Below, in pieces: positions 28,418 through 48,990 of a stretch of DNA of 64,000 nt. Origin of the DNA: Acidimicrobiales bacterium (GTDB lineage: Bacteria; Actinomycetota; Acidimicrobiia; Acidimicrobiales; Aldehydirespiratoraceae); the NCBI GenBank assembly GCA_041687805.1, contig JBDNJK010000031.1, positions 22,379 through 86,378 on the forward strand, given 5' to 3'. A program made the translations under genes and the position numbers. The notes beneath the pieces are model-generated. The model was not told the DNA's origin. It saw only the letters and a program-made list of their open reading frames with translations, and did no database searches. How positions within the stretch are numbered: the stretch's first letter is position 1; the number at the start of each line of letters is the position of its first letter.

Positions 28418-29654
28418 GGCAGAAGCCAGCCGCGACCTGGCTCGGCAAGCGAACAATTCGGCTGCCAGATCGTCGCATCTCGGTACGGCCTTCGCCGCTG
28501 TGCTGGTCTCGTTCGTGGTGCTGGGATTGCCAGTCGGAATACTCGGCACAGCCTGGCCAAGCATTAGATCCGAGTTCTCAAGAACCGACAGCGGGCTGGC
28601 CGTGCTGTTGGCCGGGTTCACCGTCGGCTACACGATTTCGAGCGCAATCTCCGGGCACTTGAGCGACCGCATTGGTTCGTCACGCCTGCTGTCGCTCGCC
28701 ATAGCCACCAGCGCCACCGGAATTGTCGCCATCGTTGCGTCGCCTGGTTTCATCGCCATGGTCGCCGCACACGTGATTCTCGGCATCGGCAACGGCTTCA
28801 TCGACTCGGTCGCCAACACATGGACGGCGCTCACACGCGGGCCGCGATCAATGGGGATGCTCCACGCCGCCTTTGGGGTCGGAGCCACGATCGGGCCGGT
28901 GCTCACCGCCGGACTCGTGTCGAGAGGTTCGTCCTGGCGATGGCCGTTTCTGATTCTCATCGGCGGGCAGATAGTTGCGTTGGCGATGGTCGTATCGAGT
29001 CGGCGATCGCTCGACAACGCTCCCCGAAGATCGCAATTCGTGACGAAGAACGTTGCGGCTGTGCCGCCACCAAGACGGCTACCAACGCTGATGCTGGCTT
29101 GGTTTGCGGTCTACCTCAGTGTCGAGGTTGCCGTCGGACAGTGGGGATACACACTGCTCACCGAAGGCAGAGGCATGTCAAAAGGCACTGCCGGCCTGCT
29201 TGTTGCTGCCTACTGGGGCGGCCTGACCATCGGCCGTTTCATACTCGGCGCAATCGGTCATCTGGTGCAACCCGAACGCCTGATGACGGCCACATCGGCG
29301 CTTGCCGTGACGATGGCCGGACTTCTCTGGCTCGACCCCGCCGGCGTCGGCGCTGCCGTATTTCCGATCATCGGACTGGCATTCGCACCGATGTTTCCGC
29401 TGATGGTCAACCGCACGCCCGTCTATCTGGGTCCGGATAGATCAAGTCGAGCAGTGGGCTACCAACTGGCGGCTTCGAGTCTTGGATTCGTCACCACGCC
29501 GTTGCTCATCGGGCTGCTCGCAGACCATCACGGGATCAGCGTCGCACCGCCGGTCGTGTTCGGTGCGACAACCGTGATGGTTGCCGTATGGCTGTCTGTG
29601 GCAGACGCCTCGAAGTCAGTATTCGACAGTGGTGAGCGCACCGGCGAGAGATGA
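28401..29654 (+). CDS. MFS transporter
   Basis: ~12 predicted TM segments with MFS-like loop motifs. Start uncertain (GTG 28401 overlaps the upstream gene by 17 nt). Confidence 0.8.
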   Translation: MAEPNRAEASRDLARQANNSAARSSHLGTAFAAVLVSFVVLGLPVGILGTAWPSIRSEFSRTDSGLAVLLAGFTVGYTISSAISGHLSDRIGSSRLLSLAIATSATGIVAIVASPGFIAMVAAHVILGIGNGFIDSVANTWTALTRGPRSMGMLHAAFGVGATIGPVLTAGLVSRGSSWRWPFLILIGGQIVALAMVVSSRRSLDNAPRRSQFVTKNVAAVPPPRRLPTLMLAWFAVYLSVEVAVGQWGYTLLTEGRGMSKGTAGLLVAAYWGGLTIGRFILGAIGHLVQPERLMTATSALAVTMAGLLWLDPAGVGAAVFPIIGLAFAPMFPLMVNRTPVYLGPDRSSRAVGYQLAASSLGFVTTPLLIGLLADHHGISVAPPVVFGATTVMVAVWLSVADASKSVFDSGERTGER

Positions 29655-30734
29655 AATAGCCGCACCACGATGGGCGTGGACAAAATCGTCGCGGTCGAGC
29701 CCATTGGTCAGGAATGCCAGAGAAATCCCGGTGGACGGATCGGCCCAGCCCCTCTGGCCTTTGGCGCCACCATGCCCGAACGTGCACGGTCCATTGTTGT
29801 GGCCATAGCCGCGCATGAGCGTCTGGCCATCGTCGCCGCCGAGCACAAACGCCCGCGTGCGGTTGGCGGGAACCCCCATCCAGTCGGGATGATTCTGACG
29901 AACCACCTCCAACGCATCGTGTCTCACCTCGGGACGGAGAAACTCGCCGTCGTCGTGGAGAATCGCCTGATACCACTTCGCAACATCGGCAGCCGACGCG
30001 ATCCCACCACCACCGGGATGTCCGGCAGCGCGCACAGCAGGGTCGTTGAACGCCAGGAGAGCGTCGTCAGTTACTTCGGTGAGAGGTATATCGAATCCGA
30101 ACTCGCGAGCGCGGGCCTCAAGATCTGGCGCCTCTCCAACATTCACCACATCGACAACGTCACCCTGATCTGCTGGATCGATGGCAAGGAACCTCGCCAC
30201 GCCAGCCGGCGTCATTACGCACTCGGTGATCACATCGGCAAAAGGTCGGCCCGTGGCTGCCGTGATCAGATCGGCGAGCACCCACTGAGCCGACGATGGG
30301 TGGTACTCGTAGCGGGTGCCGGGCTCCCAGTTGAGACGCCACGTGCCGTAGCGCTCAAGTCGGGCGGGACGATCGGCCCAGATCGCCGGCGGCATCGGCG
30401 CCGACGGAAATCCACCGGCATGAAGCATCACTTGTGAGACCGTGACCTGCTCTTTCCCGTTGGATGCAAACTCCGGAATGAGTTCGGCAACGGGAGACCG
30501 TAAATCAATGAGACCATCGGCGGCGAGCTCCAAAACCGTGAGGCTCACCGTGGGTTTGACTATAGAGAAGAGAGGGAGACGGTTGGACGTAGTGACGTCG
30601 CCGAACGCCTCAAAAACCGCCACCTCGCCACGAAAGCCCACCGCCACCTGGCAGCCAGGGATGCGACCTTCCTCTACCTCGACGCGACAGCGGTACACCA
30701 GTGCATCGACTCGGGATGGGATGAGACGGGTCAT
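29616..30734 (-). CDS. Beta-lactamase-fold serine hydrolase (class C / family VIII esterase-like)
   Basis: Start set at MTRLIPSRVD (ATG 30734), overlapping the mftF stop as ATGA. SxxK motif SIVK and FGHGGAKG near the C-terminus. The upstream 190 codons of the track ORF are Arg/Gly-rich and lie inside mftF. Confidence 0.8.
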   Translation of the reverse strand: MTRLIPSRVDALVYRCRVEVEEGRIPGCQVAVGFRGEVAVFEAFGDVTTSNRLPLFSIVKPTVSLTVLELAADGLIDLRSPVAELIPEFASNGKEQVTVSQVMLHAGGFPSAPMPPAIWADRPARLERYGTWRLNWEPGTRYEYHPSSAQWVLADLITAATGRPFADVITECVMTPAGVARFLAIDPADQGDVVDVVNVGEAPDLEARAREFGFDIPLTEVTDDALLAFNDPAVRAAGHPGGGGIASAADVAKWYQAILHDDGEFLRPEVRHDALEVVRQNHPDWMGVPANRTRAFVLGGDDGQTLMRGYGHNNGPCTFGHGGAKGQRGWADPSTGISLAFLTNGLDRDDFVHAHRGAAISSLAGALTTVEY

Positions 30735-32191
30735 TCGCGCGCGACCGTAGTGTCGCCAACCGCATCTCGACGACCCGGCCACTCCGCAAAACTCGGCAAA
30801 ATTGGGGCGAGCGTGCGTTCGGCGATCACTCCCTTCCAAACTCCGACGCCGTAGGCCATGTCGTCGACAGTGTGCAAAGCCACCGACCGGACAAAGCCAG
30901 CCGGACGGCTGCCCCTCACCCAATCGATCACGGCCGGCGCGAGAACCACCGCGGCAGCTGCCGGGCGACGGCGCGGGTGACGGATCGCAACGACCGCAAC
31001 CAATGGCCACCACACGCGGCTTGCGGCGCGCGCCAAACCGAGTCCGGCCAACAAATGTCCTCGGCTGGCAAGTCGAACCGCTTCTGCCCCCGGGTGGGGA
31101 AGCGAGTCGAGGCGCTGGGCCAGCGCCGCGGTCGAACCGACGGCCACGCCTGCCCCCACAACCGGATGACCGGCTACGGCAATAAGCCACGCAGCGGCGC
31201 TCCACCGCGAGCATCTGGCCGGAGCCACATTTCCGGCGTGACGGCGGCCCAGTGCGGCGGCCGATGACCCATACCGGAATCGCTGAGACAACCACGGCAA
31301 CCATCGCGAACGTGGTTCGTGTAGCACCTCGACGGCCGGGTCGTAGCGAACGACTCCCCCACTGTCGACCAACTTCCAGATCAGGTCGACGTCCTCACCC
31401 CACCTCATGTCGGGATCGAAGCCGCCGACCGAAATCACTGAGGCGGTCCGCGCCAGCATCGCAGCAGTGGGTACGTAACTCACCCGACGTCCGGGGCCCA
31501 CCGGCCCTGCGACATCACCGAGATCGAGCGGGCTGTGTTGTCTCTCATAGGACGCCAGATAACCCGATCCAAGACGACTCCTGACTCGAGGGGACACGGC
31601 AACGACGAGCGGATCCGCGAAGTGCCCGAGCAGGCTGGACAGCCAACCCGGGCGGACCTCGACGTCGGAATCAACAAACGCCACGAATTCGGTGTCGATC
31701 ACTTTCAGCCCGGTCGATCGAGCCGCACCCGGGCCACCGTTGATTTCGCGACGGATGTAAGCGGCGCCATGGGCCTTTGTGATCCGTCTATGAGACACGG
31801 CATCGCCAGACGCATCGTCGACCACCAAAATGCCGACATTGCCGAGCGCCCCTAGGCAACGATCAAGGCCGGCCGGATTGTCGTGCACGGGAATGATCAC
31901 TGTGACGTCGCCAGCGATCGTGCTCGCCACCTTCGGGTGCACCATTCCTGCATCGAGCAACCGTCTGGCCAGACGTCGATGCGACTCGGAGTCATCGAGC
32001 GGATCGTGTTGCTCCCATGAGTCGACAGCGTCGGCTCCCGCGTCGGTGAGCTTGACGATTCTCAACGGCGTTCCGCCCACGAGAATTCGGCCGCGGTCCA
32101 GCCTGCGTAGCGACGGGTCGAGTCGCAACTCAAACCCGGCCGGAGGAAGTGTGTCAGCCACAGGCGGGACCGTAGCGCCGACATCGCCCAC
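30731..32191 (-). CDS. mftF: Family-2 glycosyltransferase with C-terminal membrane domain, probable mycofactocin glycosyltransferase
   Basis: N-terminal LRLDPSLRRLDRGRILVGGTPLRIVKL segment, GT2 core (VTVIIPVHDNP...VVDDAS...FVDSDV) and hydrophobic C-terminal third. Matches my recollection of MftF architecture. Other mft genes are in the window. Confidence 0.72.
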   Translation of the reverse strand: MGDVGATVPPVADTLPPAGFELRLDPSLRRLDRGRILVGGTPLRIVKLTDAGADAVDSWEQHDPLDDSESHRRLARRLLDAGMVHPKVASTIAGDVTVIIPVHDNPAGLDRCLGALGNVGILVVDDASGDAVSHRRITKAHGAAYIRREINGGPGAARSTGLKVIDTEFVAFVDSDVEVRPGWLSSLLGHFADPLVVAVSPRVRSRLGSGYLASYERQHSPLDLGDVAGPVGPGRRVSYVPTAAMLARTASVISVGGFDPDMRWGEDVDLIWKLVDSGGVVRYDPAVEVLHEPRSRWLPWLSQRFRYGSSAAALGRRHAGNVAPARCSRWSAAAWLIAVAGHPVVGAGVAVGSTAALAQRLDSLPHPGAEAVRLASRGHLLAGLGLARAASRVWWPLVAVVAIRHPRRRPAAAAVVLAPAVIDWVRGSRPAGFVRSVALHTVDDMAYGVGVWKGVIAERTLAPILPSFAEWPGRRDAVGDTTVARE

Positions 32192-32210
32192 TCCCGAAGG
32201 GCATCAGTTG

Positions 32211-32460
32211 ATGCGAAGGGGCCTGATCATCTCTGCTCTGCTCGTCGGACTTGGCTTGGTAGCAGCTCCGGCGATGTTCCAAATGTTCACACGATCCCCC
32301 ATGGCGCGGAGATGATCAATGATTTCGTCCGTTCATGACACAGCAGAAGGTCGACACGTTTCGCGGGTATCTCACGGAGATCGATGGTGGCTGTTGCATG
32401 CGGCGACTCGTCGTCAGACAACACCGACCAGGCAGGAACCACCGTTGCTTAGACCATCAC
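32211..32460 (+). pseudogene. Possible decayed gene fragment (signal-anchor peptide followed by frame-shifted continuation)
   Basis: 32211-32315 encodes MRRGLIISALLVGLGLVAAPAMFQMFTRSPMARR*. The next frames read ...GAEMINDFVRS* and MTQQKVDTFRGYLTEIDGG..., which would join into one plausible N-terminus if two indels are assumed. Confidence 0.2.
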
Positions 32461-32531
32461 TGTCGCACCGCCTCCGTTCTTCGGCGTCGCCTTCGCGGTC
32501 TCCATCGATGACGGTTGACGGCGGTTGCCGA

Positions 32532-33386
32532 TCAGCCCCCCAGAACCTCGGCCACACCGGCTGAGACATCTGCCGGGCCGGTGACCGTCGTCAGCCGCGC
32601 CCCTGTTGCTGCAGCGAACTCGCGTGCGTCGTCGGCATCGTCGGCCGGAGCGATGATGCACAATTCCTGAGCCCGACGCGCCGCCACAACCGCGTCGGCG
32701 CCAGCTGTTGAGCGACAGTCGGACAACAGCAGGATGATCTGACGTTTTGCACTCGATCTCGCCAACTGGCTGCGCGCCGATTCGAGCACTGCAGCAAGAT
32801 CGGTGGTGCCGTGACCCTGCAATCGCAAAATGTCGTCGACCACCGCACCCGCCGAACGATGACGATCCTGAGACTTCACCGCCACGACCTTTTCGCCGAA
32901 CGCCAGAACCGACCAGTCGGCGGGGGCCCGCCACGAACAGGCCGCGGCACACACCGCCGCAGTGGCGAGACGGTGCCCGCTCATCGAGCCGCTGCGGTCG
33001 ACCACCAACGCCACCGCCGTGGCTGGGCGGCGCCAGGCTCTCACACGGAGGGCATCGACCGACACAGGCTCCGATGACGCACCAGCGCGAACAATCTCAT
33101 CGAGGCTCCTGTCGAGGTCGAGATCGCCTTCGGCCCTACTTGCAGGAAGGCTCTCCAGACGGCCAAGCCCGCGGGCTGAGACTGGGCCCGACCGGGCGAC
33201 ATCGAGCACCAACCGCCCTGCAATTTTCGCCGCTAGCGCGGACAGACGTCGGTCGGTGGCACCGCTCATTGTCGCCAGCATCTCCAAAGCTGCATCGAGA
33301 TCTTCCTGAGTCAGCTCGGCCAACGCATCATCGTCAATCTCACCCAGCTCCGGACTCAGCTCCGCGAATCTCGGATCACGCGACAT
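32532..33386 (-). CDS. von Willebrand factor type A (vWA) domain protein, MoxR partner
   Basis: MIDAS motif VVDRSGSMSG plus GHGTTDL and LLLSDC. Start uncertain: ATG 33386, or ATG 33542 which would overlap the MoxR gene by 88 nt. Confidence 0.8.
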   Translation of the reverse strand: MSRDPRFAELSPELGEIDDDALAELTQEDLDAALEMLATMSGATDRRLSALAAKIAGRLVLDVARSGPVSARGLGRLESLPASRAEGDLDLDRSLDEIVRAGASSEPVSVDALRVRAWRRPATAVALVVDRSGSMSGHRLATAAVCAAACSWRAPADWSVLAFGEKVVAVKSQDRHRSAGAVVDDILRLQGHGTTDLAAVLESARSQLARSSAKRQIILLLSDCRSTAGADAVVAARRAQELCIIAPADDADDAREFAAATGARLTTVTGPADVSAGVAEVLGG

Positions 33387-33454
33387 CTCACGGCGAGATT
33401 TTGTTCCCCGACGTTCGCTCTCAAGCTGCTCTCTGGCCGCGTCGCCTTCGAGGG

Positions 33455-34384
33455 TCAGAGACGATCCGTCGAGGCCCCGGTCGGGGCTCGGCGTTTTGGG
33501 TCGTCGCCACCTTCGGTTTCGGCTTGGATCACGGCCGCCCAAAGTTCGCAGATCACGTCTTCGGGGGTGCTGTCCCCGCCCTCGTGGAGCCGTATGCGAC
33601 CCGAAAGTGCAACCAGCGCCGCGTCGAGCCCCACATTGGAATCGTCGAGGGGCATCTGGCGAATACCGGCGAGCCGCCTCGCCACCTCGACCTGATCGAT
33701 GGCGCCGCGCACCGACGAACCCACTCTGACATCGGGGTGATGACGTGTGGCGCGAGTGACGGCCACGGCCCTCGTTCGCAAAATTTCGTCGCCGGTACCA
33801 GCTCGCTGCTCGACGATGTCCTCTTCATCGGGCGCCGATTGGTAATCCATGGTTATGCGGCAGATCCGGTCGTAGATGGCACCGGCGACACGTGAGGTGC
33901 CGACGTTGTCGAACGGGTTCATCGCGGCCACAATCCGGAATCCGTCAGCGGCCGCTACCCGCCCGATACGCGGCACATTGAGCTCACCTTCTGACATCAC
34001 TGTGATCAGGAGGTTGACCGTCTCCTCGGGAACCCGGTTGAGCTCCTCGACATAGAGCAGCGAGCCCTCCCTGAGTGCCTCCAGCAGCGGCCCATCGACG
34101 AACACGTCGGGCACATAACCCTCGCTCATCACTCGCGACGGATCGAACTGTCCGGCAAGACGCGCCGGGGTGAGCTCGGCATTTCCCTCCACGAACACGA
34201 ACCCGCGGTGGGCGGCATCGGCCGCGGCACGCAACATTGTGGATTTGCCTGTGCCCGGAGGTCCCTCGAGCAAAACATGTCGACCTGCGGCCAGAGCTGC
34301 CACGAGAAGTTCGAGCTCGCGGCGGCGCCCGACGATGGCACGGTCGAGCGCGTCGAGAACGCTTCGATCATCGAGTCGGGTCAC
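33455..34384 (-). CDS. MoxR-like AAA+ ATPase
   Basis: Walker A LLEGPPGTGKST, Walker B LLYVEELNR, and FRIVAAMNP. 309 aa, typical MoxR size. Confidence 0.88.
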   Translation of the reverse strand: MTRLDDRSVLDALDRAIVGRRRELELLVAALAAGRHVLLEGPPGTGKSTMLRAAADAAHRGFVFVEGNAELTPARLAGQFDPSRVMSEGYVPDVFVDGPLLEALREGSLLYVEELNRVPEETVNLLITVMSEGELNVPRIGRVAAADGFRIVAAMNPFDNVGTSRVAGAIYDRICRITMDYQSAPDEEDIVEQRAGTGDEILRTRAVAVTRATRHHPDVRVGSSVRGAIDQVEVARRLAGIRQMPLDDSNVGLDAALVALSGRIRLHEGGDSTPEDVICELWAAVIQAETEGGDDPKRRAPTGASTDRL

Positions 34385-34426: not shown

Positions 34427-35539
34427 TCAGTCAAACGTGATGACGCCACGGATGTTCTTGTTGGCCAGCATGTCGTCGTAGCCCTGGTTGACCTCGTCGA
34501 GGGCGTAGGTGTTGGTGATCATCTCATCGAGCTTCAGTTGGCCAGCCTGATACATCGACAAAAGGTGGGGGATCTCCTTGCGAGGAGAGGTGGACCCGAA
34601 TAGGCAGCCCTTGAGCTCCTGGTTCATCATGGCGAAGGCAAAGAGATTGAGCTGCACATCCATGCTGGCCTCATTGGCAACGGCGGTGGCCACCACGGTG
34701 CCGCCCTTGCGAGTAAGGAACTGCGCCGGGAGAATCATGTCGCCGGTGAGCTCCCCAGGGGTGAGAATCGTGCTGTCGGCCATCACACCCAAGGTGAGAC
34801 CGCCTACCAATTCTGTCGCCTCGGCCATTGACGTAGCCGTGTGGGTGGCGCCGAAATTCATTGCGCTCTCGCGTTTGAACTCAGATGGGTCCACCGCAAT
34901 CACGTGCTTTGCGCCGGCGGCGTGAGCGCCCTGAACCGCCGACATGCCGACCCCGCCGCATCCGACTACGACAACAGTGTCTCCAGCGGTGACATCGGCA
35001 CGGTTGACCGCCGAGCCGTATCCGGTGGTGACACCGCAGCTCACGAGAGCGGCAGGGCCGGCCGGAATGTCTTTCTCGATTTTGATGGCGCTGTCGACGC
35101 TGAGGATCATGTGTTCGGCGAAGGTGCCGAGCTTGAGCAGCGGGGTGATGTCTTCGCCGGAGGCAGAGTGGTGACGGAAACCGCCGGCCATCATTCCCGG
35201 CTCTAATAGATGAGCACCGAGATCGCAGAGGTTCTGCATGCCGCGGGCGCACCAAGTGCATTTTCCACACGATGGGATGAACGAGCACGCGACGTGGTCG
35301 CCGATCTCAAATTCGGTGACACCCTCGCCGAGACCGATCACCTCACCCGCGCCCTCATGGCCACCGACAACGGGGAGCGGGACAGTCATTGAACCGTTGT
35401 GAGCGTGCTCATCGGAGTGACACATCCCCGCGGCGAGAGTCTTGACCAAGATCTCCCTCGGTTGCGGATCGTCGAGTTCGATTTCCTCGACCTCCCACGG
35501 TGTGTTCACCTCACGCAGCACTGCGGCCCTGGTTTTCAT
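34427..35539 (-). CDS. Zn-dependent alcohol dehydrogenase, NDMA-dependent/mycofactocin-associated type (by context)
   Basis: Start at MKTRAAVLRE (ATG 35539, GGGGAAGG upstream). Contains GMCHSDEH, GHEGAGEV and GCGGVGMSAVQGA motifs. Confidence 0.85.
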   Translation of the reverse strand: MKTRAAVLREVNTPWEVEEIELDDPQPREILVKTLAAGMCHSDEHAHNGSMTVPLPVVGGHEGAGEVIGLGEGVTEFEIGDHVACSFIPSCGKCTWCARGMQNLCDLGAHLLEPGMMAGGFRHHSASGEDITPLLKLGTFAEHMILSVDSAIKIEKDIPAGPAALVSCGVTTGYGSAVNRADVTAGDTVVVVGCGGVGMSAVQGAHAAGAKHVIAVDPSEFKRESAMNFGATHTATSMAEATELVGGLTLGVMADSTILTPGELTGDMILPAQFLTRKGGTVVATAVANEASMDVQLNLFAFAMMNQELKGCLFGSTSPRKEIPHLLSMYQAGQLKLDEMITNTYALDEVNQGYDDMLANKNIRGVITFD

Positions 35540-35635
35540 CGATTTACCTTCCCCACTTGAGCGACCCGGCACGAATCGACCGGACGCCGCGAAAGTATCA
35601 GTGACGCCTCACATCGTCAGTATCGCCACCGCCGG

Positions 35636-36433
35636 TCAGTTGGTGGCGGTCATCCCACCGTCGACCGGAATCACCGCGCCGGTGATCGCCGAGGCGCTCT
35701 GTGAGCACAACCAAGCGATCGTTGCGGCCACCTCTCCCGGCTCGATCAGACGGCCGAGCGGCTGTTGATGGACCACGAAATCCTCGGGGTCGGCGAGGTG
35801 ATAGATCTCCGCTGAGGCATCGAGGATAGGAGTGCGGGTGGAGCCGGGCGAGACTGCATTGGCTGTGATCCCGGTGCCGGCAAGATCAGCGGCCAGCGAT
35901 CTGACCAAGCCGATCACGCCGTGCTTGGCCGCGGCATAAGCCGCCATGTGATGAAGCCCGAGCGACCCCGCGGCTGATGCCACCGCGACCACTCTGCCTC
36001 TCCCGTACGACGAAGTCTCCAAAATCACCGGCACTGCCGCCCGCACCGTGCGATAGACGCCGGTGAGGTCGACATCGAGGACCACATTCCACGTGGGATC
36101 GTCGGTCTGCCAGAGTGGATTGCCACCCGCGGCCACGCCAGCGGCAGCGATCACCGCGTCGAGATGTCCAAACCGATCCACCGCCACCGCGACCGCAGCA
36201 TCGAGTGCCGTCTGGTCGCGCACGTCGGCTATCGCGCCCACCACTGAGCCGCCACCTGCTTCGACCACTGCGTCCAGATCCTCTGCTGTCGCCAGCGGAT
36301 AGGCGAGCGCCGGGTCATCGGCGCATGCGTCGACGGCAACCACCCCCCATCCCGCGGCAACGAGATCCGACACAGTGGCCGCGCCGATGCCTCGGGCGGC
36401 GCCGGTTACGAGTGCGACTGGCTGATTCACCAC
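35636..36433 (-). CDS. Short-chain dehydrogenase/reductase, mycofactocin-coupled SDR-like
   Basis: TGAARGIGAA followed by the insert VDACADDPALAYPLATAEDLDAVV, and YAAAKHG catalytic motif. The insert matches what I recall of the mycofactocin-coupled SDR family. Confidence 0.8.
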   Translation of the reverse strand: MVNQPVALVTGAARGIGAATVSDLVAAGWGVVAVDACADDPALAYPLATAEDLDAVVEAGGGSVVGAIADVRDQTALDAAVAVAVDRFGHLDAVIAAAGVAAGGNPLWQTDDPTWNVVLDVDLTGVYRTVRAAVPVILETSSYGRGRVVAVASAAGSLGLHHMAAYAAAKHGVIGLVRSLAADLAGTGITANAVSPGSTRTPILDASAEIYHLADPEDFVVHQQPLGRLIEPGEVAATIAWLCSQSASAITGAVIPVDGGMTATN

Positions 36434-38644: not shown

Positions 38645-38947
38645 TCAGCTCCTCTTGAAGACCACACCGTGGCCCCCCTCTGGATACGACCATGAGATGG
38701 CGCCCTCGTTGTTGCACACCATGTAACAGGTGCCGCATTCGAAGCACTGCTCGTAGTTGAAGAGAATTCCGCCGTCGCTCGTGGGCACGAACAAGTTGGC
38801 TGGACAGGCGGTGATGCACGCCTTGGCCGGGCAGTGGCTGCACACCGCTGAGTCGACGATGATGTGGGCTCGCGTCGACACCCTGAAGTCGATTGTGGCC
38901 ATGCGAGCCTCGAACGAGACCGCACCTCTTGACATGTGCATGGCCAT
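38645..38947 (-). CDS. fixX: FixX-type ferredoxin-like protein
   Basis: ...CSHCPAKACITACPANLF...YEQCFECGTCYMVCNNEGAISWSYPEGGHGVVF.... The ATG at 38947 shares 1 nt with the fixC stop (TGATG). The track ORF is 9 codons longer. Confidence 0.8.
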   Translation of the reverse strand: MAMHMSRGAVSFEARMATIDFRVSTRAHIIVDSAVCSHCPAKACITACPANLFVPTSDGGILFNYEQCFECGTCYMVCNNEGAISWSYPEGGHGVVFKRS

Positions 38948-41191: not shown

Positions 41192-43179
41192 AATGCCCGT
41201 CCGATCCGGTCGCCGTCGATGACGGCCGAGTGCACCCGGCGCGGCGCCACGGCATCACCAACCCGGTGGACGTCGAGGTTGAGCTCGCTCTCCATGGACT
41301 TCAACTGGAAATACAAACCATCTGAAGCCCGGGGTGGAAGGCTCATCACCACCCAGTCGGGTCGACGAGTCTCGACTTGGCCGGTGAGGTGATACATCAA
41401 CCCGACCTCGCCACGACCATCGACAGTTCCCGCCCTGGTGACGATTCGGTCAGTGGTTTGCCGAATGCCCTTGGCCTCGGCTCGCATCCACCAGTTTTCC
41501 ATGTCGAGCGTGATCCCCAAATCTTGGCCGACGACCATGCCAGGGGTGACAATTTCGACGTCGCAACCACGATCAGCCAACAATTCGGCGACCGAGGTAG
41601 CTTCGTGAAAGCCGAGATGATCCACCACCAGAACGTCGCCCTCGGGGTCGGCCTCGCCACTGAGCACGGCGATCACATCTACGCAACGCTGCCGGAATTC
41701 GTCGTCGTCTGGTGGCAACCAGTACGGAGCGTTGAACTCAGATCCCGCGGCCACGATCACGGCGTCCGGGCGACGCGTTCGGACCAAGTCGGCGTCGACC
41801 TCGACACCGCATTCGATCTCGACACCGAGCCGCTCACACTCCACCAGTTGATTGCGGATCACATCGCCGAGCTCCGCACGGTTGGGAACCGAAGCCGCCC
41901 AACGCACCTGCCCCCCCACCATTTCGGATCGCTCGACAACGCTGACTCGGTGGCCATGCGCAGCCGCTGATATCGCCGACTGAAGTCCAGCGGGTCCGGC
42001 GCCGACCACCAACACGTCGCGTGCGTTGCTACGACTCGTGGGCGCCGGCAGCACGCTCTCGCGGCCGGTCATCGGATTCTCGACGCAACCGAGCCAACGA
42101 TTGAGCCCCATTCTCCCGACACATTCCTGGTTGCACGACAGACACAATCTCGTGTCGCCGGCCATACCAGCTCGCGCCTTGGCCACGAACTCAGGATCGG
42201 CGATCTGCCCTCGCACCACGCCGACCAGATCACAATGACCGTCGGCAATGGCGCGGTCGGCCTGCAAAGGGTCCTTGAAACGTCCGACACCAACCACCGG
42301 TAGGTCGACCTTGGCACGGATGGCCGAGGGAATGAACAGTGCGTACCCCGGCGGTATGTGCATCGACGCCTCGATGACAAACAACGATGACGTGGCCACC
42401 CCGATGGAGGTGTTGATGTAGTCGACCTGTGCACGTCGATCCAACTCGACGGCCACGTCGACTGCCTCGTCGATACGCGTGCCGTTGTCGATCAACTCGT
42501 CGCCACAGAGCCTCACACCCAACGCCACATCCGAGCCGACCGCGTCGCGTACGGCGGCCACGATCTCGTGAAGCATTCGGCTGCGATTCTCGAGAGAACC
42601 GCCGTATTCATCGCGGCGCTTGTTGGTGGCAGGCGACAGAAACCCTCGAACGATCGAGCTGTGTGAGCACTGCAACTCCACGCCGTCGAAGCCGCCCTCC
42701 ACACATCGTGCGGCCACGTCTGCGTAGCCACGAACGATCTCCGCGATCTCGCGATGGTCGACTTCCTTGGGCACCTCGCGAAACATCGGATCGGGCACGG
42801 GAGACGGAGCCCAGACCGGAAGTCGCGAATACATCGATGATGCCTGACCTCCGTTGTGGTTGATCTGGGCAAAGATCGGGGTGCCGTGGGCATGGACAGC
42901 GCGGGTGATCCGGCGATAGCCGTCGACCACCTCTGGGCGGAAGGCATGAATCATCTTCTCGTAGGGCCAATCGGTGGGGTGAACCGAATGCTCCTCGGTG
43001 ATGATCAGGCCAGCCCCTCCCCTGGCCCTGGCCTCGTAGTAGGCAACGTGTTGATCGCTCGGCATGCCGTTGTCGGCATAGTTGGTGAGGTGGGCGCTGA
43101 AGACAATCCGGTTGGGGATCGTGACCGGACCCAGCCGTAGAGGCTTGAACAGGTAACGGTATTGCCCTGCTCCGCTCAC
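41188..43179 (-). CDS. FadH/OYE-family flavoprotein (OYE TIM-barrel + 4Fe-4S + FAD/NAD(P) domain)
   Basis: 663 aa. N-terminal OYE-like LFKPLRLGPVTIPNRIVFSAH. Cluster motif CLSCNQECVGRMGLNRWLGC (C-x2-C-x3-C-x11-C). VLVVGAGPAGL dinucleotide fold. Confidence 0.85.
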   Translation of the reverse strand: MSGAGQYRYLFKPLRLGPVTIPNRIVFSAHLTNYADNGMPSDQHVAYYEARARGGAGLIITEEHSVHPTDWPYEKMIHAFRPEVVDGYRRITRAVHAHGTPIFAQINHNGGQASSMYSRLPVWAPSPVPDPMFREVPKEVDHREIAEIVRGYADVAARCVEGGFDGVELQCSHSSIVRGFLSPATNKRRDEYGGSLENRSRMLHEIVAAVRDAVGSDVALGVRLCGDELIDNGTRIDEAVDVAVELDRRAQVDYINTSIGVATSSLFVIEASMHIPPGYALFIPSAIRAKVDLPVVGVGRFKDPLQADRAIADGHCDLVGVVRGQIADPEFVAKARAGMAGDTRLCLSCNQECVGRMGLNRWLGCVENPMTGRESVLPAPTSRSNARDVLVVGAGPAGLQSAISAAAHGHRVSVVERSEMVGGQVRWAASVPNRAELGDVIRNQLVECERLGVEIECGVEVDADLVRTRRPDAVIVAAGSEFNAPYWLPPDDDEFRQRCVDVIAVLSGEADPEGDVLVVDHLGFHEATSVAELLADRGCDVEIVTPGMVVGQDLGITLDMENWWMRAEAKGIRQTTDRIVTRAGTVDGRGEVGLMYHLTGQVETRRPDWVVMSLPPRASDGLYFQLKSMESELNLDVHRVGDAVAPRRVHSAVIDGDRIGRAL

Positions 43180-45218
43180 CTCGTCACCCCCTGCGTGCCC
43201 GGCATCGCTCTCGCGGCCGACATTGACGACTCGGCGGAGAGCACTGCTCGACGCGCCTCAAGAATCGCTTCGAGAATCGTGCGAGGAGCCACGGCATCGC
43301 CCACCCGCGGAAGTGAATGGCCGCATTTCTCCCACAGGTCGGTGTCGGGAAGCCGGTGGCCGGCATCGATGATCGTGCCGGTGAGGACGCTTCGTTCGCC
43401 GCTGAATCGGTGTTCGACAGTGACCGTGCCATCACCGATCGACAGGACCTTCACCCGGCGCACGATCTCGATCCCGAGCTGCGCCAACCGACTGTTGCAT
43501 GGGGCTAGATCCCCGCTGGGCGCCAGCATCTGACCAGCGAAAGCATCGCCGGTGACCATCGTGACCTGACGTCCGAGGTGAGAGAGCATCTCCGCCACGG
43601 ACACGCCGATTGGACCGCCGATCGAGTCGAGAATGACCGCGTGACCACCGGCTGGCACGAGGTCGTGGAGGATGCCGAACCGTGATCCATTGAGGACGGC
43701 TGCGGCAGTGAGCGGCGGGGTGGTGCCCTCGATTGGTGCGGCCGACGGACCGTCAACGGAACCGGTTGCCAGAATGACGGGCCCCTCATGGGCCTCTATT
43801 TCGAACGGTTCAGCGATGTGGCCGGTGATGGCCTCAACGCCAAGACGCCGAACCTCCGACTCAAGCCAATCGGCTATGCCCTCGAGCGGTCGACGTCCCG
43901 AACCCTCGGCCGCGGTTCGCACCATTCCACCAAGATGGTCGGAGGCCTCCAGGATCCGAACCCGGTGGCCGCGCTCGGCCGCGACCCGCGCAGCTTCGAG
44001 GCCGGCTGTCCCCCCTCCTACCACCAGAAATTGTGGGGTGTCGTCGCCACCTCTTCGAGCACCGGCAGACTCTGACCTCGCACACGGTTCCGGATCGTCC
44101 AGCTCGTGGCCCGACCTGGGGTCGACCACACAGGTGACGATGGGGTTGCGGTTATCACGGACCTGGCATGTCTGATTGCAGAGAACGCATGGGCGGATCA
44201 GCGCTGGATCGACAGCAGCCTTTGCCGCGAGTTGAGCGTCGGCGATCTGGGCTCTGGTCATCTCGACCAAGTCGCAGCGACCGTCGCCCAATGCCCGCTC
44301 GGCTTGTCCGACATCGACTATCGAGCCCTGCGCTATCACAGGTATCGACTCGCCGATTCCGATTCTGATATCGCGCACCAAGTCGAGGTTGAACCCGGCG
44401 GGCTGGTGGGCATCAGGGCGCGTGGCCTCGACCGAGAAGATCGAACCCTTCACCACGACGAGATAGTCGACAAACCCAGCCAGTTCCTTGGCAATTTCGA
44501 CCGCCGACTCGGGGGTGATGCCCGCCCACGGCGCCAACTCATCACACGACAGCCTGAGGCCGACGATGCCATCACCCACCGCTGATCTCGTTGCCTTGAT
44601 CACCTCACGGGCGAATCTCAATCTGTCGGCTCCGTATTCATCATCACGACGATTGGTGAGCCCCGAGATGAACTGACGGACCAGCGAATGCTGACCAGCG
44701 TTGATCTCGACGCCGTCGACACCTGATTCGGCGGCCAGCGCGGTCGCGGCACCAAAGCCGCTGATCACAGCCCGAACATCATCGGGTTCCATGATCTTGG
44801 GAATCTCGCGGGTGTTGACCTCGGGCTCATCGGAAGGCGCCCACAGCGGATCCTGAGACCAATGAGAGGTTCCTTGACCTCCGCTATGGCCGATCGCAGC
44901 GACCACCAGAGCTCCGTGCTTGTGGCACGCGTCGGCGATCGAGCGCCACCCGGGCCCACAATCGGCAGCCAGCGGGGCCCGTTCATATGGCCAATCGGAC
45001 TCGTGAACGGAGGCTTCCTCCACCACGATCACCCCAGCACCGCCGATGGCACGACGCTCGTAATAGGCGACGTGCCGGGGCGACAATGCGCGGCGAACAC
45101 CAAGGTTGGTCGTGTGCGGACCAAACATGATCCGACTCGACGCCTCGGCGTTCCCCAATTTAACAGACGAGAGAAGTTTCATCGACGGGGCGACCGTAGC
45201 TCTACTGTCGCCTGTCAC
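43176..45218 (-). CDS. FadH/OYE-family flavoprotein, paralog of the downstream gene
   Basis: 680 aa. CVLCNQTCQVRDNRNPIVTC (same C-x2-C-x3-C-x11-C spacing). FLVVGGGTAGL. GTG start at 45218, or ATG 45182 (MKLLSSVKLG). Confidence 0.85.
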   Translation of the reverse strand: MTGDSRATVAPSMKLLSSVKLGNAEASSRIMFGPHTTNLGVRRALSPRHVAYYERRAIGGAGVIVVEEASVHESDWPYERAPLAADCGPGWRSIADACHKHGALVVAAIGHSGGQGTSHWSQDPLWAPSDEPEVNTREIPKIMEPDDVRAVISGFGAATALAAESGVDGVEINAGQHSLVRQFISGLTNRRDDEYGADRLRFAREVIKATRSAVGDGIVGLRLSCDELAPWAGITPESAVEIAKELAGFVDYLVVVKGSIFSVEATRPDAHQPAGFNLDLVRDIRIGIGESIPVIAQGSIVDVGQAERALGDGRCDLVEMTRAQIADAQLAAKAAVDPALIRPCVLCNQTCQVRDNRNPIVTCVVDPRSGHELDDPEPCARSESAGARRGGDDTPQFLVVGGGTAGLEAARVAAERGHRVRILEASDHLGGMVRTAAEGSGRRPLEGIADWLESEVRRLGVEAITGHIAEPFEIEAHEGPVILATGSVDGPSAAPIEGTTPPLTAAAVLNGSRFGILHDLVPAGGHAVILDSIGGPIGVSVAEMLSHLGRQVTMVTGDAFAGQMLAPSGDLAPCNSRLAQLGIEIVRRVKVLSIGDGTVTVEHRFSGERSVLTGTIIDAGHRLPDTDLWEKCGHSLPRVGDAVAPRTILEAILEARRAVLSAESSMSAARAMPGTQGVTR

Positions 45219-45420: not shown

Positions 45421-45518
45421 AGTCCATCTCCTATTTCCAATTTGCGTCCGGATGTATGGCGACAGAGTACATCTAGACAGCTCAGATAGTCTCTGTGGCA
45501 AGCGAAAGAGGAACCGCC

Positions 45519-46238
45519 ATGAGCCACGACCCTTACGGAACGACCCTGACACAGCCGGTGATCACACTCGGCGAAGAAGCGCGGGGCGAATTTGTAGTGC
45601 GGGTCTACCAGCATCTACTGGGCGCAGTCGTGGCGTTCATTGCCATAGAGGCTCTGTTCATCAATCTCGGGATTGCCGAGGGCCTCTACAACTTCGTGTC
45701 GGGCAACGGCATGGGGTGGCTGCTGATTCTCGGCGCGTTCATGGTGGGCCAATGGTTCGTGGCCCAAGCTGCAGCCGATCTGCTCAACCCGGTTCGCCAG
45801 TATCAGGCGCTCTTCGCCATGGCCGGACTCGAAGCTCTCATCTTCGCCCCGTTTCTTCACTACATGTTCAACGTGCAGGACAACGGCACCACCTCAGTTG
45901 CTGCGGCCGCTCTCATCACCACGATCGGCTTCGCCGGATTGTCGCTGGTGGCCTTCGTCACTCGCAGAGACCTTTCATTTCTGCGTCCGATGGTCATGTA
46001 CGGGTTCATCGGAGCGCTGGTGCTCATCGTTGCTGCCGTGATATTCGGACTCAGCCTCGGGATCTGGTTCTCAGTAGGAATGATCCTGCTGGCCGGTATG
46101 GCGATCCTTTACCAGACCCAAACGATCATCCGTCACTATCCCGCCGACGCTCACGTGGCCGGAGCGCTCGCCCTGTTCGGCTCGCTCATGACCATGTTCT
46201 GGTATGTGCTGCGCCTTGTTGGCCAGGTTTCTCGCTGA
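45519..46238 (+). CDS. Bax inhibitor-1/YccA family membrane protein
   Basis: Seven hydrophobic segments and an N-terminal FVVRVYQHLLGAVVAF pattern. ATG 45519 is preceded by AGAGGA. Confidence 0.8.
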   Translation: MSHDPYGTTLTQPVITLGEEARGEFVVRVYQHLLGAVVAFIAIEALFINLGIAEGLYNFVSGNGMGWLLILGAFMVGQWFVAQAAADLLNPVRQYQALFAMAGLEALIFAPFLHYMFNVQDNGTTSVAAAALITTIGFAGLSLVAFVTRRDLSFLRPMVMYGFIGALVLIVAAVIFGLSLGIWFSVGMILLAGMAILYQTQTIIRHYPADAHVAGALALFGSLMTMFWYVLRLVGQVSR

Positions 46239-46269
46239 CACACAGTCGGCGCCGACATCGATCGGCGAT

Positions 46270-47376
46270 TCAGCGTCGAGCGCCCAAGCTCACCGACATG
46301 GGCCGTGAGTGGTCGGCGTCCGACGTCGGCAGCGGACCGGCTGATTGCAGCAGCGCCTGACCGTGGCCGGTGACGCACTCAGGGTCGGGGCCATCGAGAG
46401 GTAAGCCGGTGAAGAACTTGGCCGCCATGCATCCGCCCTGGCAGGCATCAAATTGCCCGCACGAACTGCACGCCCCTGCTGATTGCGGTTCGCGCAATTC
46501 GGCGAAGAGGCTGCTCTCACGCCAGATCGAGGCGAACCCGCCGGCATCACAAACGTTGCCGGCTCGGAAGTCTTCGTGGAGAACGAACGGGCAGGCGTAG
46601 ACATCCCCCACCGGATCGACCAGACAAACCACCCGACCCGCGCCGCAGAGATTGAGGCCGGGCAACGGGTCCCCCAACGCAGACAAGTGGAAAAACGAAT
46701 CGCCGGTGAGGACATCGGGCCGTTCGACCAACCAGTTGTAGAGCTCGATCTGTTGAGCGTTGGTGGCGTGAAGTTCGTTCCAGGAGTCGGCGCCCCGACC
46801 CGACGGGCGCAGGCGGGTCAGCCGTAGCTGCGCACCGAAACGATCGGCCAGAGCGGCGAATTGATCGAGTTGTGGAATGTTGTGTCGGGTCATCACCACA
46901 GAGATCTTGAACTCTCCGAAGCCAGCTTCGTGAAGATGTGCCATGGCGGTGACTGCCGTGTCGAACGAGCCTTCGCCACGCACTGCGTCGTTGGTCGCAG
47001 CATCGGCACCGTCGATGGAAATCTGGACATCGACGTAATCCATCGTGGCAAGATCACGCGCTACTTCTGCATCGATGCGCGACCCATTGGTCGAGAACTT
47101 GACGCCGACGCCGTGGGAAACCGAGTAGTCGACCAGATGCCAAAAGTCGGGACGAATGGTGGGTTCGCCGCCTCCGATGTTGACGTAGAAGACCTGCATT
47201 TCTTGCAGCTGGTCGATCACAGCCTCGGCTTGAATGGTCGTCAACTCACGCTTGTCGCGAATGCCCGATGACGACAGGCAATGCACGCATTGCAGGTTGC
47301 AGGCGTAGGTGAGCTCCCATGTGAGGCAGATCGGTGCGTCGAGCCCGGCCTTCATCTGATCGGATAGAGCGGTCAT
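46270..47376 (-). CDS. mftC: Mycofactocin radical SAM maturase
   Basis: CX3CX2C (YACNLQCVHC). SPASM cysteines (CGAGRVVC...ACPF; CSSCGQFDACQGGC). Start overlaps the mftB stop by 4 nt. Downstream of mftA-mftB. Confidence 0.92.
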   Translation of the reverse strand: MTALSDQMKAGLDAPICLTWELTYACNLQCVHCLSSSGIRDKRELTTIQAEAVIDQLQEMQVFYVNIGGGEPTIRPDFWHLVDYSVSHGVGVKFSTNGSRIDAEVARDLATMDYVDVQISIDGADAATNDAVRGEGSFDTAVTAMAHLHEAGFGEFKISVVMTRHNIPQLDQFAALADRFGAQLRLTRLRPSGRGADSWNELHATNAQQIELYNWLVERPDVLTGDSFFHLSALGDPLPGLNLCGAGRVVCLVDPVGDVYACPFVLHEDFRAGNVCDAGGFASIWRESSLFAELREPQSAGACSSCGQFDACQGGCMAAKFFTGLPLDGPDPECVTGHGQALLQSAGPLPTSDADHSRPMSVSLGARR

Positions 47377-47669
47377 GCGGGAATCAACAATTCAGACTCT
47401 GCCAGTGATCTCAGCGCCTTCTCGAACGATGGCCATCGTCGGCTGTCGATTCCGGAAGCTTGAAAGGCCTCACGCACACTCGGATGGTCACCGATCGACT
47501 CCACCAACGCCACCAGCTCCGGCGCACGTAGGAAATTGAGCCGGCGATTGTCGTAGTGGTAGGCGAGCGCGCCGAAAGGTTCAGGCCTGATAGCGACCTT
47601 GGGGTGGAGCCGATACGCCAGGTCGGCGTCGAACCCGGTGGATGTCATGCGGTTGTGGTCATGGCTCAT
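47373..47669 (-). CDS. mftB: Mycofactocin biosynthesis chaperone (PqqD-family RRE protein)
   Basis: 98 aa, YRLHPKVAIRPEPFGALAYHYDNRRLNFLRAPELVALVESI, the MftB pattern. Sits between mftA and mftC. Confidence 0.9.
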   Translation of the reverse strand: MSHDHNRMTSTGFDADLAYRLHPKVAIRPEPFGALAYHYDNRRLNFLRAPELVALVESIGDHPSVREAFQASGIDSRRWPSFEKALRSLAESELLIPA

Positions 47670-47696
47670 GGTGGTGATTCGACACCGTCGCTGGGC

Positions 47697-47855
47697 TCAG
47701 TAGACCCCGCACATGCCGTCGATTGATATGTCCTCGACTAGCAACTCCTCGACTAGCAACTCGTCTTTGATGAGTTGATCAGCCTCGGCTGAATCTCCGG
47801 AATCGACTGACTTGGTCTCATCGATGTGATCGCTGAGATCGGTAGGTGCCATCAT
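47697..47855 (-). CDS. mftA: Mycofactocin precursor peptide (52 aa), absent from the ORF track
   Basis: Manual reverse translation: MMAPTDLSDHIDETKSVDSGDSAEADQLIKDELLVEELLVEDISIDGMCGVY*. The C-terminal IDGMCGVY is the MftA hallmark. GGAGG lies 12 nt upstream of the first ATG. 27 nt upstream of mftB. Confidence 0.9.
   Translation of the reverse strand: MMAPTDLSDHIDETKSVDSGDSAEADQLIKDELLVEELLVEDISIDGMCGVY
47731..47762 (-). repeat. Perfect 15-bp tandem duplication (ctcgactagcaactc x2) inside mftA, encoding ELLVE-ELLVE
   Basis: 47733-47747 and 47748-47762 are identical. In frame. Confidence 0.95.
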
Positions 47856-47928
47856 GCCTGTGCCGTGCCTCCGTTTCGAATGGGGGGCAGGTTATCAGCG
47901 AGGTTCGGGCCGTCACCGAGGAGTACCA

Positions 47929-48990
47929 GTGGAACTCGACATCATGTCCGGCGCTTTGGAGCTCAGCGCCATGCAGGCTCACGCCAAAGCTGTTGAGGAC
48001 GCTGGCTTCGGGTCGATGTGGCTGACCGAGTCGGGCCGCACTGCCTACCTTTCGTGTGCTGCTGCCGGGCTGGCCACCGAAAGTCTCGGCGTCGGCACCG
48101 CGATCGCTGTGGCGTTCCCGCGCAGCCCGATGGTCACCGCGTCGACCGCTTGGGAATTGGCCGACGCGACCAATGGTCGCTTCACCCTCGGCCTTGGCAC
48201 CCAAATCAAAGCCCACATCGAGCGTCGTTACTCCACCGAATACTCCCATCCTGGGCCCCGTCTCAAGGAGTACGTCGAGTCGGTGAAAGCGATTTTTCGG
48301 GCATTCCGAGGTGAAGAGAAGCTCCATTTCGACGGTGACTACTACCAATTTTCTCTCCTCCCGGGACAATGGTCACCCGGACCGATCTCTGCACCTGATC
48401 CGCCCGTCTACGTTTCTGCTGTACTCCCGTGGATGAGCCGGATGGCAGGTGAGGTTTGCGACGGAATCCACATCCATCCGTTCAACTCACCCGCCTACAT
48501 ATCCGAAGTGCAAGTTCCTGCGATCGAGGTTGGTCTGGGCCGCTCAGGCCGGTCTCTCGACGACATCACCTTCGTGATTCCGGTGATGACGGCTGTGGGA
48601 GATACCGAAGAAGAGATCATCTCCACACGTGAGCACGCCCGCATGATGATCGCCTTCTACGGCTCCACCCGCACCTACTCACCGGTGTTCGAGACCCACG
48701 GATTTCACGGTCTGTCGGAACATCTCCATAGCTGTCAACGAGAGGGCGACATGGCAGCGATGGTCGCCGCGGTCACCGACGATGTGCTCGACCACTACAT
48801 CGTGTCGGCCACCTGGGCCGACGTTGGTGAGGCATTGGTCGACCGTTACCGCGCTGTCGCTCCCAACGTCCGAATTGTCACTTATACGGCGGCCCACCAA
48901 CTCTCCTCTGACCCCGAGGTGCTCGACAAATGGGCCGACGTAGCAGCGGCGGTGAATCGGCGGTCGCGCGAGCCAAACGCTCCCGACTAG
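47929..48990 (+). CDS. Luciferase-like monooxygenase (LLM) class oxidoreductase
   Basis: ...AVEDAGFGSMWLTESGRTAY...GRFTLGLGTQIKAHIERRY.... GTG 47929 is preceded by GAGGAG at 5 nt. Alternative starts are ATG 47944 or ATG 47854. Divergent from mftA. Confidence 0.8.
   Translation: MELDIMSGALELSAMQAHAKAVEDAGFGSMWLTESGRTAYLSCAAAGLATESLGVGTAIAVAFPRSPMVTASTAWELADATNGRFTLGLGTQIKAHIERRYSTEYSHPGPRLKEYVESVKAIFRAFRGEEKLHFDGDYYQFSLLPGQWSPGPISAPDPPVYVSAVLPWMSRMAGEVCDGIHIHPFNSPAYISEVQVPAIEVGLGRSGRSLDDITFVIPVMTAVGDTEEEIISTREHARMMIAFYGSTRTYSPVFETHGFHGLSEHLHSCQREGDMAAMVAAVTDDVLDHYIVSATWADVGEALVDRYRAVAPNVRIVTYTAAHQLSSDPEVLDKWADVAAAVNRRSREPNAPD

Follow-up and report, generated by a model that had tools for sequence, protein, structure and literature searches.

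A mycofactocin gene cluster of Acidimicrobiales with an OYE/ETF redox module at the usual position of mftD

The DNA considered here, a stretch of 64,000 nucleotides from an Acidimicrobiales bacterium (assembly GCA_041687805.1, contig JBDNJK010000031.1; hereafter the window), encodes its mycofactocin (mft) system in a single contiguous cluster of ~17 kb (30.7-47.9 kb). Six genes of this cluster, for two old yellow enzyme (OYE)-family proteins, the two subunits of an electron transfer flavoprotein (ETF), a FixC-like flavoprotein and a FixX-like ferredoxin, lie exactly at the usual place of mftD, which makes them candidates for the job of MftD. On balance, the comparisons described below lead us to favour, if only somewhat, the reading that this module stands in for MftD, perhaps for MftG as well, and delivers electrons to quinone. 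In mycobacteria, mycofactocin biosynthesis is held to be solved: the redox-active keto-amide is the product of MftD, and electrons are fed back into respiration by MftG. The window, together with ~170 related loci, provides a concrete candidate for two gaps in this picture, the mftC genomes without MftG and those without MftD. That MftD, MftE and MftR are not universal was already remarked by Haft (2011). MftG is absent from ~25% of the genomes that have mftC, and its substitute was called an open question by the authors who characterised it; the MftG-less genomes in their table include Ilumatobacter, Iamia, Geobacter, Frankia, Rubrobacter and Streptomyces yangpuensis.

A contiguous cluster with a redox module ahead of mftE

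The open reading frames (ORFs) of the window were scanned with NCBIfam and Pfam, and bit scores were compared with the curated NCBIfam cut-offs (Table 1). The 8.5 kb from mftC to mftE hold OYE1, OYE2, etfA, fixC, fixX and etfB, all of which are translationally coupled to mftE. The successive spacings in the stretch OYE1-mftE are -4, -4, -8, -1, +3 and -4 bp, and since these genes overlap or nearly abut, mftE is the last gene of the redox-module operon. OYE1, OYE2, etfA and etfB all score above the cut-offs of NCBIfam families that are named for their association with mycofactocin. The system is interrupted only by a BI-1-family gene, the sole opposite-strand gene inside the cluster, by a small MT0933-like gene and by one orphan ORF. 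Gene calls were made with a codon-usage log-odds caller and agree with independent Logan gene calls. A preliminary description of this DNA had left two genes of 660-680 aa (OYE1 and OYE2), fixC and fixX without identification. The genes that it did name are real, with scores above the NCBIfam cut-offs for mftB, mftC, mftE, mftF, the short-chain dehydrogenase/reductase (SDR) and the zinc-dependent alcohol dehydrogenase (Zn-ADH) and a match to PF23709 for mftA; their coordinates need small corrections, for example 34427-35572 and not 34427-35539 for the Zn-ADH. BI-1 does converge on mftC and a luciferase-like monooxygenase (LLM)-family oxidoreductase does diverge from mftA, as had been claimed, and the position given as the start of the region, 29616, belongs to an esterase gene and not to mftF.

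The reported absence of mftD, mftG and mftR from the window also holds in tblastn searches of all six frames of the 64 kb. Four genuine MftD queries reach a best E of ~1, MftR from a canonical Streptomyces cluster reaches a best E of 0.19, and E. coli LldD, BetA and BetI give only E > 1. MftG from the canonical Streptomyces cluster has a lone match (1e-4), which is the FAD Rossmann fold of FixC. The negative result for MftD is meaningful because MftD was detected with the identical queries in 16 related loci.

The presence of two OYE-family genes raises the question as to what kind of enzymes they encode. Both proteins have the Pfam domains Oxidored_FMN and Pyr_redox_2 and belong to the three-domain FMN/4Fe-4S/FAD(ADP) family, a fold family that holds FadH and naphthoyl-CoA reductase (NCR) as well as trimethylamine dehydrogenase (TMADH) and histamine dehydrogenase; these same four are the nearest PDB relatives of OYE2. 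We aligned 15 OYE1 sequences, 15 OYE2 sequences and 2 haloarchaeal homologues with E. coli FadH. The Fe-S motif C-x2-C-x3-C-x11-C and the first GxGxxG are kept in 32/32 sequences, and the NADPH motif of FadH, GCGGIG, is lost in every one of them (D-P-I-G-G in OYE1, D-x-L-G-F-H in OYE2). Tyr166 and His252 of FadH are likewise missing from all 32, with Ser in place of Tyr166, and so is the Cys of TMADH that binds FMN covalently. Each family has an invariant active-site motif, AGQxSL.RQF in OYE1 and CSHSSIVRGF in OYE2. With the NADPH motif, Tyr166 and His252 gone, OYE1 and OYE2 would not be NADPH-driven ene-reductases or dienoyl-CoA reductases, and the loss of the NADPH site suggests that they need a protein redox partner. 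TMADH hands its electrons to an ETF, which makes the ETF of the operon the obvious partner, and OYE1 and OYE2 probably depend on it. The PDB matches of the ETF/OYE comparison include the TMADH-ETF complex (1o94).

Two side observations concern the OYE proteins. In a 1031-aa protein on a 29-kb ENA contig (P0009), a full-length OYE2 follows an N-terminal FMN/Fe-S domain of the OYE1 type, which suggests that OYE1 and OYE2 act as a heteromer, with the proviso that a single contig may reflect an assembly or deletion artefact; reading this protein as an OYE2-EtfA fusion was rejected. Secondly, the nearest plasmid relatives of OYE2 outside mycofactocin clusters (~36% identity; Rhodococcus rhodochrous pNit, locus L172, 11971-13950) sit among amine/betaine catabolic genes such as those for BetT and aminobutyraldehyde dehydrogenase, a setting that is consistent with the amine-oxidising members of the fold family. 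This Rhodococcus match was considered as a counter-example and rejected, as it belongs to amine or betaine catabolism and not to a mycofactocin cluster.

ETF together with FixCX is a classic route to quinone. The FixC-like gene lies between etfA and etfB in the window, in the two Acidimicrobiales loci that match its architecture (L005, L006), in Streptomyces, on a Haloterrigena plasmid and in metagenome loci; in class D Acidimicrobiales loci it is inverted and follows etfA. This inversion relative to etfA is seen in one Acidimicrobiales subgroup (L024, L030, L037, L041, L047, L048, L052, L062, L069, L079), where etfB and fixX were not detected downstream and where a CoxL-type molybdopterin subunit is often encoded between mftC and OYE1. 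Three other loci have TetR-family regulator genes between etfB and mftE (L117, 13201-13842; L137, 11537-12145; L167, 13108-13710). These are unmatched by the MftR query in tblastn, the L117 member has no NCBIfam match, and they may represent a distinct regulator family for OYE-type clusters.

Table 1 Genes of the mycofactocin cluster and its borders, in window coordinates, with the best family matches.
Gene or product	Position	Strand	Match and remarks
LLM oxidoreductase, F420-type	47929-48990	+	TIGR03617, 339.7 bits (cut-off 278); divergent from mftA
mftA, precursor peptide, 52 aa, C-terminus ...EELLVEDISIDGMCGVY (IDGMCGVY)	47697-47855	-	PF23709 MftA, E 6e-11; Logan call agrees
mftB, peptide chaperone	47373-47669	-	TIGR03967, 104.8 bits (cut-off 33)
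mftC, radical SAM/SPASM maturase	46270-47376	-	TIGR03962, 620.8 bits (cut-off 265); 4-bp overlap with mftB
BI-1/YccA-family membrane protein	45495-46238	+	PF01027, E 2e-25; convergent on mftC
Small MT0933-like protein, 59 aa	45241-45420	-	PF14013, E 2e-13; opens the long minus-strand array
OYE1, mycofactocin-system FadH/OYE-family FMN/4Fe-4S/FAD oxidoreductase 1	43176-45182	-	TIGR03996, 756.8 bits (cut-off 627.9)
OYE2, mycofactocin-system FadH/OYE-family oxidoreductase 2	41188-43179	-	TIGR03997, 941.2 bits (cut-off 793.15)
etfA, mycofactocin-associated electron transfer flavoprotein alpha subunit	40247-41191	-	NF038209, 309.8 bits (cut-off 240)
FixC-like FAD-dependent oxidoreductase (ETF:quinone oxidoreductase type)	38947-40254	-	PRK10015, 321 bits, and PRK10157 (FixC), 291 bits; both below cut-offs (466, 610)
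FixX-like ferredoxin	38645-38947	-	PRK15449 (FixX), 50.8 bits, below cut-off 166; Logan Pfam Fer4 matches
etfB, mycofactocin-associated electron transfer flavoprotein beta subunit	37805-38641	-	TIGR04503, 241.2 bits (cut-off 200)
mftE, creatininase-family peptidase releasing AHDP	37107-37808	-	TIGR03964, 263 bits (cut-off 172); 4-bp overlap with etfB
Orphan ORF, 193 aa, cupin-like His pattern (HDH...H)	36498-37079	-	Called by Logan; no Pfam/NCBIfam match
Mycofactocin-coupled SDR, nicotinoprotein-type client dehydrogenase	35636-36433	-	TIGR04504, 349.5 bits (cut-off 250)
NDMA-dependent (mycofactocin-linked) Zn-ADH	34427-35572	-	TIGR03989, 509.9 bits (cut-off 440)
MoxR-type AAA+ ATPase	33455-34384	-	PF07728 AAA_5, E 2e-22
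CoxE-like VWA protein	32532-33386 (start possibly as far up as 33542)	-	PF05762 VWA_CoxE, E 2.5e-14
mftF, glycosyltransferase	30731-32191	-	TIGR03965, 415 bits (cut-off 280)
Beta-lactamase-fold esterase	29616-30734	-	PF00144, E 1e-49; 4-bp overlap with mftF end

Of the remaining genes in Table 1, the orphan ORF is probably not a component of the system: it has no homologue in the ~170 related loci, nor in L006, the closest relative that covers this position, and we rejected it as a candidate oxidase for that reason. It is uncertain whether the esterase is part of the mycofactocin system. The sole sizeable intergenic space of the minus-strand array is a 340-bp non-coding gap between the VWA gene and mftF (32192-32531), where mftF and the esterase gene may have a promoter of their own; promoter and terminator scans gave results at chance level only. 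The left part of the window (G+C ~60%) carries genes for ribosomal proteins, RNA polymerase and translation factors, which identifies the window as core chromosome, and the ribosomal S10 operon goes on beyond the left edge in the contig extension; towards the right the Logan contigs come to an end. The window sequence is present on Logan assembly contigs of runs SRR9199119 and SRR9199120 and on an NCBI contig, and its nearest public MftC relatives (68-86% identity) come nearly all from metagenome-assembled genomes (MAGs) labelled Acidimicrobiales, Acidimicrobiia or Actinomycetota.

Related clusters inside and outside the order

Within Acidimicrobiales we mapped 80 loci around mftC by tblastn and gene calling. 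The most informative are three loci (L025-L027) that share the frame of the window, mftBC, BI-1, MT0933, a variable slot and then mftE-SDR-ZnADH-MoxR-VWA-mftF. The slot is occupied by a true mftD in these loci (TIGR03966, 641 bits vs. a cut-off of 471) and by the six-gene module in the window. Eleven further loci (L008-L015, L017, L021, L023) have the order mftBC-mftD-mftE-SDR-ADH-...-MoxR-VWA-mftF. In a tally of 60 mftC loci with a neighbourhood of 10 kb, mftD alone is present in 15 and OYE genes alone in 12, both occur together in none, and 33 have neither. On a neighbour-joining tree of MftC the MftD-type and OYE-type clusters interleave, which implies at least ~4 switches between the two types. 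The core peptide of MftA is identical in both, so that the same amine intermediate, AHDP, is expected in both.

Other features of the window are likewise shared between the cluster types. BI-1 follows mftC in L004-L006, L018, L020, L022 and L025-L027, which comprise MftD-type and OYE-type relatives, and the MT0933-like gene adjoins BI-1 in relatives too. The order in which an LLM gene on the minus strand precedes mftA is kept in both types (L004-L006, L008-L015, L017, L020, L021, L023); the conservation of this F420-type gene hints at co-regulation, or at a functional link of F420- and mycofactocin-dependent chemistry. A MoxR-VWA pair adjoins mftF or the ADH gene in the window (32532-34384) and in L023, L025-L027, L099, L104, L113 and L165, and is present in the Haloterrigena plasmid cluster (L088, 14694-17868). 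The pair, too, is found in MftD-type and OYE-type clusters, and may be an unrecognised accessory component of mycofactocin systems, such as a chaperone or a metal-insertion factor. A further arrangement, mftABC-(QueF-like, DUF)-mftE-MoxR-VWA-mftF with neither mftD nor OYE-ETF genes within 10 kb, was seen in L029, L032, L033, L043 and L049-L051, and further loci of this type are L054, L056, L060, L067, L068 and L073. Recurrent neighbours (c0, c9, c13, c20 and others) were considered as substitutes for MftD and rejected, as they are MDR-type ADH, CoxL-like, QueF-like and DUF-type proteins.

Outside the order, the compact form of the cluster is found on plasmids of S. yangpuensis (NZ_CP102515.1) and Streptomyces sp. 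NBC_00557, where mftABC-OYE1-OYE2-etfA-FixC-FixX-etfB-(SDR)-mftF-mftE run without a gap and are annotated as such by PGAP; neither operon contains mftD or mftG. S. yangpuensis has only one MftC, on the plasmid, as well as no MftG and no second mft cluster. The plasmid of Streptomyces sp. NBC_00080, which is of the same replicon type as that of S. yangpuensis, carries a canonical mftR-mftG-mftABCDEF cluster, from which the module is absent. When Acidimicrobiales MftD was searched by tblastn against all PLSDB plasmids, four true MftD plasmids were found, none of them OYE-type, and MftD is present on 0/7 OYE-type plasmids. None of the six OYE-type Streptomyces strains is among the ~75 MftD-bearing Streptomyces named in the matches listed, which is weak evidence. 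In the archaeon Haloterrigena turkmenica, pHTUR01 carries these parts too, though arranged differently, with several mycofactocin-coupled SDRs and the AAA-VWA pair among them; one OYE-like gene lies in the ETF operon and a second ~9 kb off, and mftD and mftG are absent from the cluster.

Starting from an etfA alignment, a scan of metagenomes gave 80 loci with 630 kb in all, containing no MftD, no MftG and one MftR. The order mftABC-OYE1-OYE2-etfA-fixC-fixX-etfB-mftE/F without mftD or mftG is present in 35 metagenome loci of at least 6 kb, and the dominant form is mftABC-OYE1-OYE2-etfA-fixC-fixX-etfB-mftE-(SDR-ZnADH-MoxR-VWA)-mftF.

Proposed role of the module and its alternatives

In the pathway that we propose from these gene identities, MftB and MftC would decarboxylate and cyclise the Val-Tyr end of MftA, and MftE would set free the amine AHDP. 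One OYE-family enzyme, in place of the FMN enzyme MftD, would then convert AHDP to the imine, hydrolysis of which would give the keto-amide premycofactocin, with electrons passing from FMN via the 4Fe-4S cluster, ETF and FixCX to menaquinone. MftF would glycosylate the product, and the SDR and Zn-ADH would be users of the finished cofactor. The second OYE paralogue could possibly re-oxidise mycofactocinol via the same ETF route, which is the role of MftG. When mftD is deleted in Mycobacterium smegmatis, AHDP glycosides build up and no mycofactocin is made (PMC7491314), so that the oxidative deamination would still be required in clusters with the module.

The main rival to a replacement of MftD, which we consider the less probable of the two but take seriously, is that mftD is located elsewhere in the genome, either solitary or in an mftD-mftE-type fragment. 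The module would then not be biosynthetic, and would be a redox outlet or inlet for the finished cofactor, analogous to MftG, or a pair of mycofactocin-dependent substrate oxidoreductases. A number of observations weigh against our preferred reading, and several of them favour this rival. Split systems are common in the order, as illustrated by the 33 of 60 mftC loci without mftD or OYE genes nearby. None of six MftD-centred loci on long contigs (L173-L178) has mftD next to mftABC; the gene is solitary in four, with mftE in one and with mftE and mftF in one, which makes a remote mftD plausible for the organism of the window. (The MftD proteins of these loci are 74-77% identical to that of L026, and L176 has a GMC oxidoreductase gene 3 kb downstream.) Some of the metagenome etfA-fixC-fixX-etfB-mftE-mftF loci are preceded by unrelated genes, and the scope of the mftD scan was the 64-kb window, with the rest of the genome outside it. 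The mutual exclusion of mftD and OYE genes within clusters is strong in counts but has few independent lineages behind it, and its Fisher p of 0.027 was computed as if the loci were unrelated. With regard to the enzymes, the position of TMADH Cys30, the residue of the 6-S-cysteinyl-FMN, is Thr in OYE1 and Leu in OYE2, and in overall similarity both proteins are slightly nearer to FadH and NCR, which are ene-reductases, than to amine dehydrogenases. EtfA and EtfB score about equally against bifurcating and non-bifurcating PDB structures, and the direction of electron flow rests on the type of ETF. Finally, a role in recycling alone would suit a window that lacks MftG, like about a quarter of mftC genomes for which the replacement is an acknowledged open question, and ETF-FixCX, as a classic path to quinone, would fit such a role as well.

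The best counter-argument to a remote mftD is provided by the plasmids, where compact operons span mftA to mftE/F without mftD, and in particular by S. yangpuensis with its single, plasmid-borne MftC and no MftG. If the module served only for recycling, MftD would still be needed and should sometimes share a cluster with the module; mftD is present in 15/48 non-OYE loci but in 0/~55 OYE-type loci and plasmids. In addition, the module is located exactly at the mftD position of a conserved frame. The MftD-type clusters of Acidimicrobiales and Thermomicrobium lack MftG and the module alike, so that the module complements MftD and not MftG. The earlier suggestion that this lineage uses a different enzyme for the step is still the reading with the best support, with a remote mftD, the other option offered at the time, as its main rival. 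A wider version of the replacement, in which the module would be a respiratory-chain-coupled, oxidase-independent stand-in for both MftD and MftG with one OYE paralogue per step, is put forward tentatively, as we think it rather doubtful.

Two other readings fare much worse. According to the preliminary description, the window holds a dispersed supercluster, with mftABC, mftE and mftF scattered among generic ETF genes and dehydrogenases and one step simply missing. BI-1 on the opposite strand and an 849-bp strand switch do part mftABC from the rest, and the distances from mftC to mftE (8.5 kb) and mftF (14.1 kb) are as described. We nevertheless regard dispersal as very improbable, since the genes from mftC to mftF are all accounted for save BI-1, the MT0933-like gene and the orphan ORF. 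Four of them belong to mycofactocin-associated families and three (mftE, SDR, Zn-ADH) to mycofactocin or mycofactocin-coupled families, those from OYE1 to mftE overlap, fixC and fixX recur at the equivalent place in most related clusters and the MoxR-VWA pair in a subset, and among the metagenome loci this order in its compact form outnumbers every other architecture. The intervening genes are thus not unrelated to the system, and the earlier interpretation as a whole is partly supported. Least credible of all is a decaying system that has lost mftD and makes no functional cofactor, or only amine AHDP glycosides: the missing mftD and the orphan ORF inserted between mftE and the SDR gene would fit, but the genes are intact, full-length and above equivalog cut-offs, the client nicotinoprotein dehydrogenases are kept, and an architecture that many lineages share at 60-85% protein identity, in two bacterial classes and an archaeon, is not what a dead system would leave.

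If the replacement of MftD by the module is real, it predicts an ETF-linked AHDP dehydrogenase, which would be a new activity, and would wire the alcohol oxidation that depends on mycofactocin directly to the quinone pool. Such a module would help to explain how the cofactor is used by organisms outside mycobacteria. On the wider version, with both enzymes replaced, there would be a second widespread flavour of mycofactocin system, in Acidimicrobiia, Streptomyces plasmids, haloarchaea and possibly mft-bearing anaerobes, and lineages would switch repeatedly between the two.

Comparison with known systems

The window cluster belongs, as an ordinary member, to a variant already recognised by databases: NCBIfam names these OYE and ETF families as mycofactocin-associated, and PGAP annotates such clusters routinely. 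The preliminary description had raised the possibility that the layout was catalogued already and that a canonical mftD lay outside the window; machine annotation does exist in public records for the Streptomyces plasmids and for MAG loci L004-L006, which bears out the first part. In the literature searched we found no paper on mycofactocin together with electron transfer flavoprotein, and no account or explanation of the OYE/ETF variant; the sole paper there that names both mycofactocin and old yellow enzyme appears to concern coumarin degradation in Pseudomonas. What appears to be undescribed so far is that the module takes the position of mftD, that clusters switched repeatedly between the types and that both OYE families have lost their NAD(P)H site.

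Compared with the canonical mftR/mftG/mftABCDEF clusters of Mycobacterium, Rhodococcus and NBC_00080, the window shares the MftA core peptide, MftB, MftC, MftE, MftF and the SDR and Zn-ADH clients. Unlike them, it has no MftD, MftG or MftR, carries the six-gene module in the mftD slot, has mftABC split off by BI-1, and has MoxR and VWA genes adjoining mftF. The Streptomyces OYE/ETF plasmids are closer, with the same order from mftA through etfB, save for the BI-1/MT0933-like insertion after mftC, followed by mftE, mftF and SDR genes; they also lack the orphan ORF after mftE. In the window mftF comes last, after SDR-ADH-MoxR-VWA, whereas it precedes mftE in the compact Streptomyces operons. Haloterrigena pHTUR01 and the window have the same gene set, including the AAA and VWA pair, in another arrangement.

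At the protein level, TMADH and histamine dehydrogenase resemble OYE1 and OYE2 in having an FMN TIM barrel, a 4Fe-4S cluster, an ADP/FAD Rossmann domain and a degenerate NAD(P)H domain, and their reactions are amine-to-imine oxidations. OYE1 and OYE2 differ from both in having no equivalent of Cys30 and in their Fe-S spacing, which is FadH-type (CxxCxxxC). E. coli FadH, NCR and BaiCD are the best PDB and second-best NCBIfam matches of OYE1 and OYE2 and share this spacing and the FAD Rossmann motif; unlike FadH, every OYE1 and OYE2 examined lacks the NADPH GxGxxG, Tyr166 and His252. Lastly, the module is like FixABCX and YdiQRST in that an ETF alpha/beta pair is encoded with a FixC-like flavoprotein and a FixX-like ferredoxin. 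It differs from FixABCX in that its FixC and FixX score below the family cut-offs and in that the partners are OYE-family proteins, and not nitrogenase-linked or acyl-CoA enzymes.

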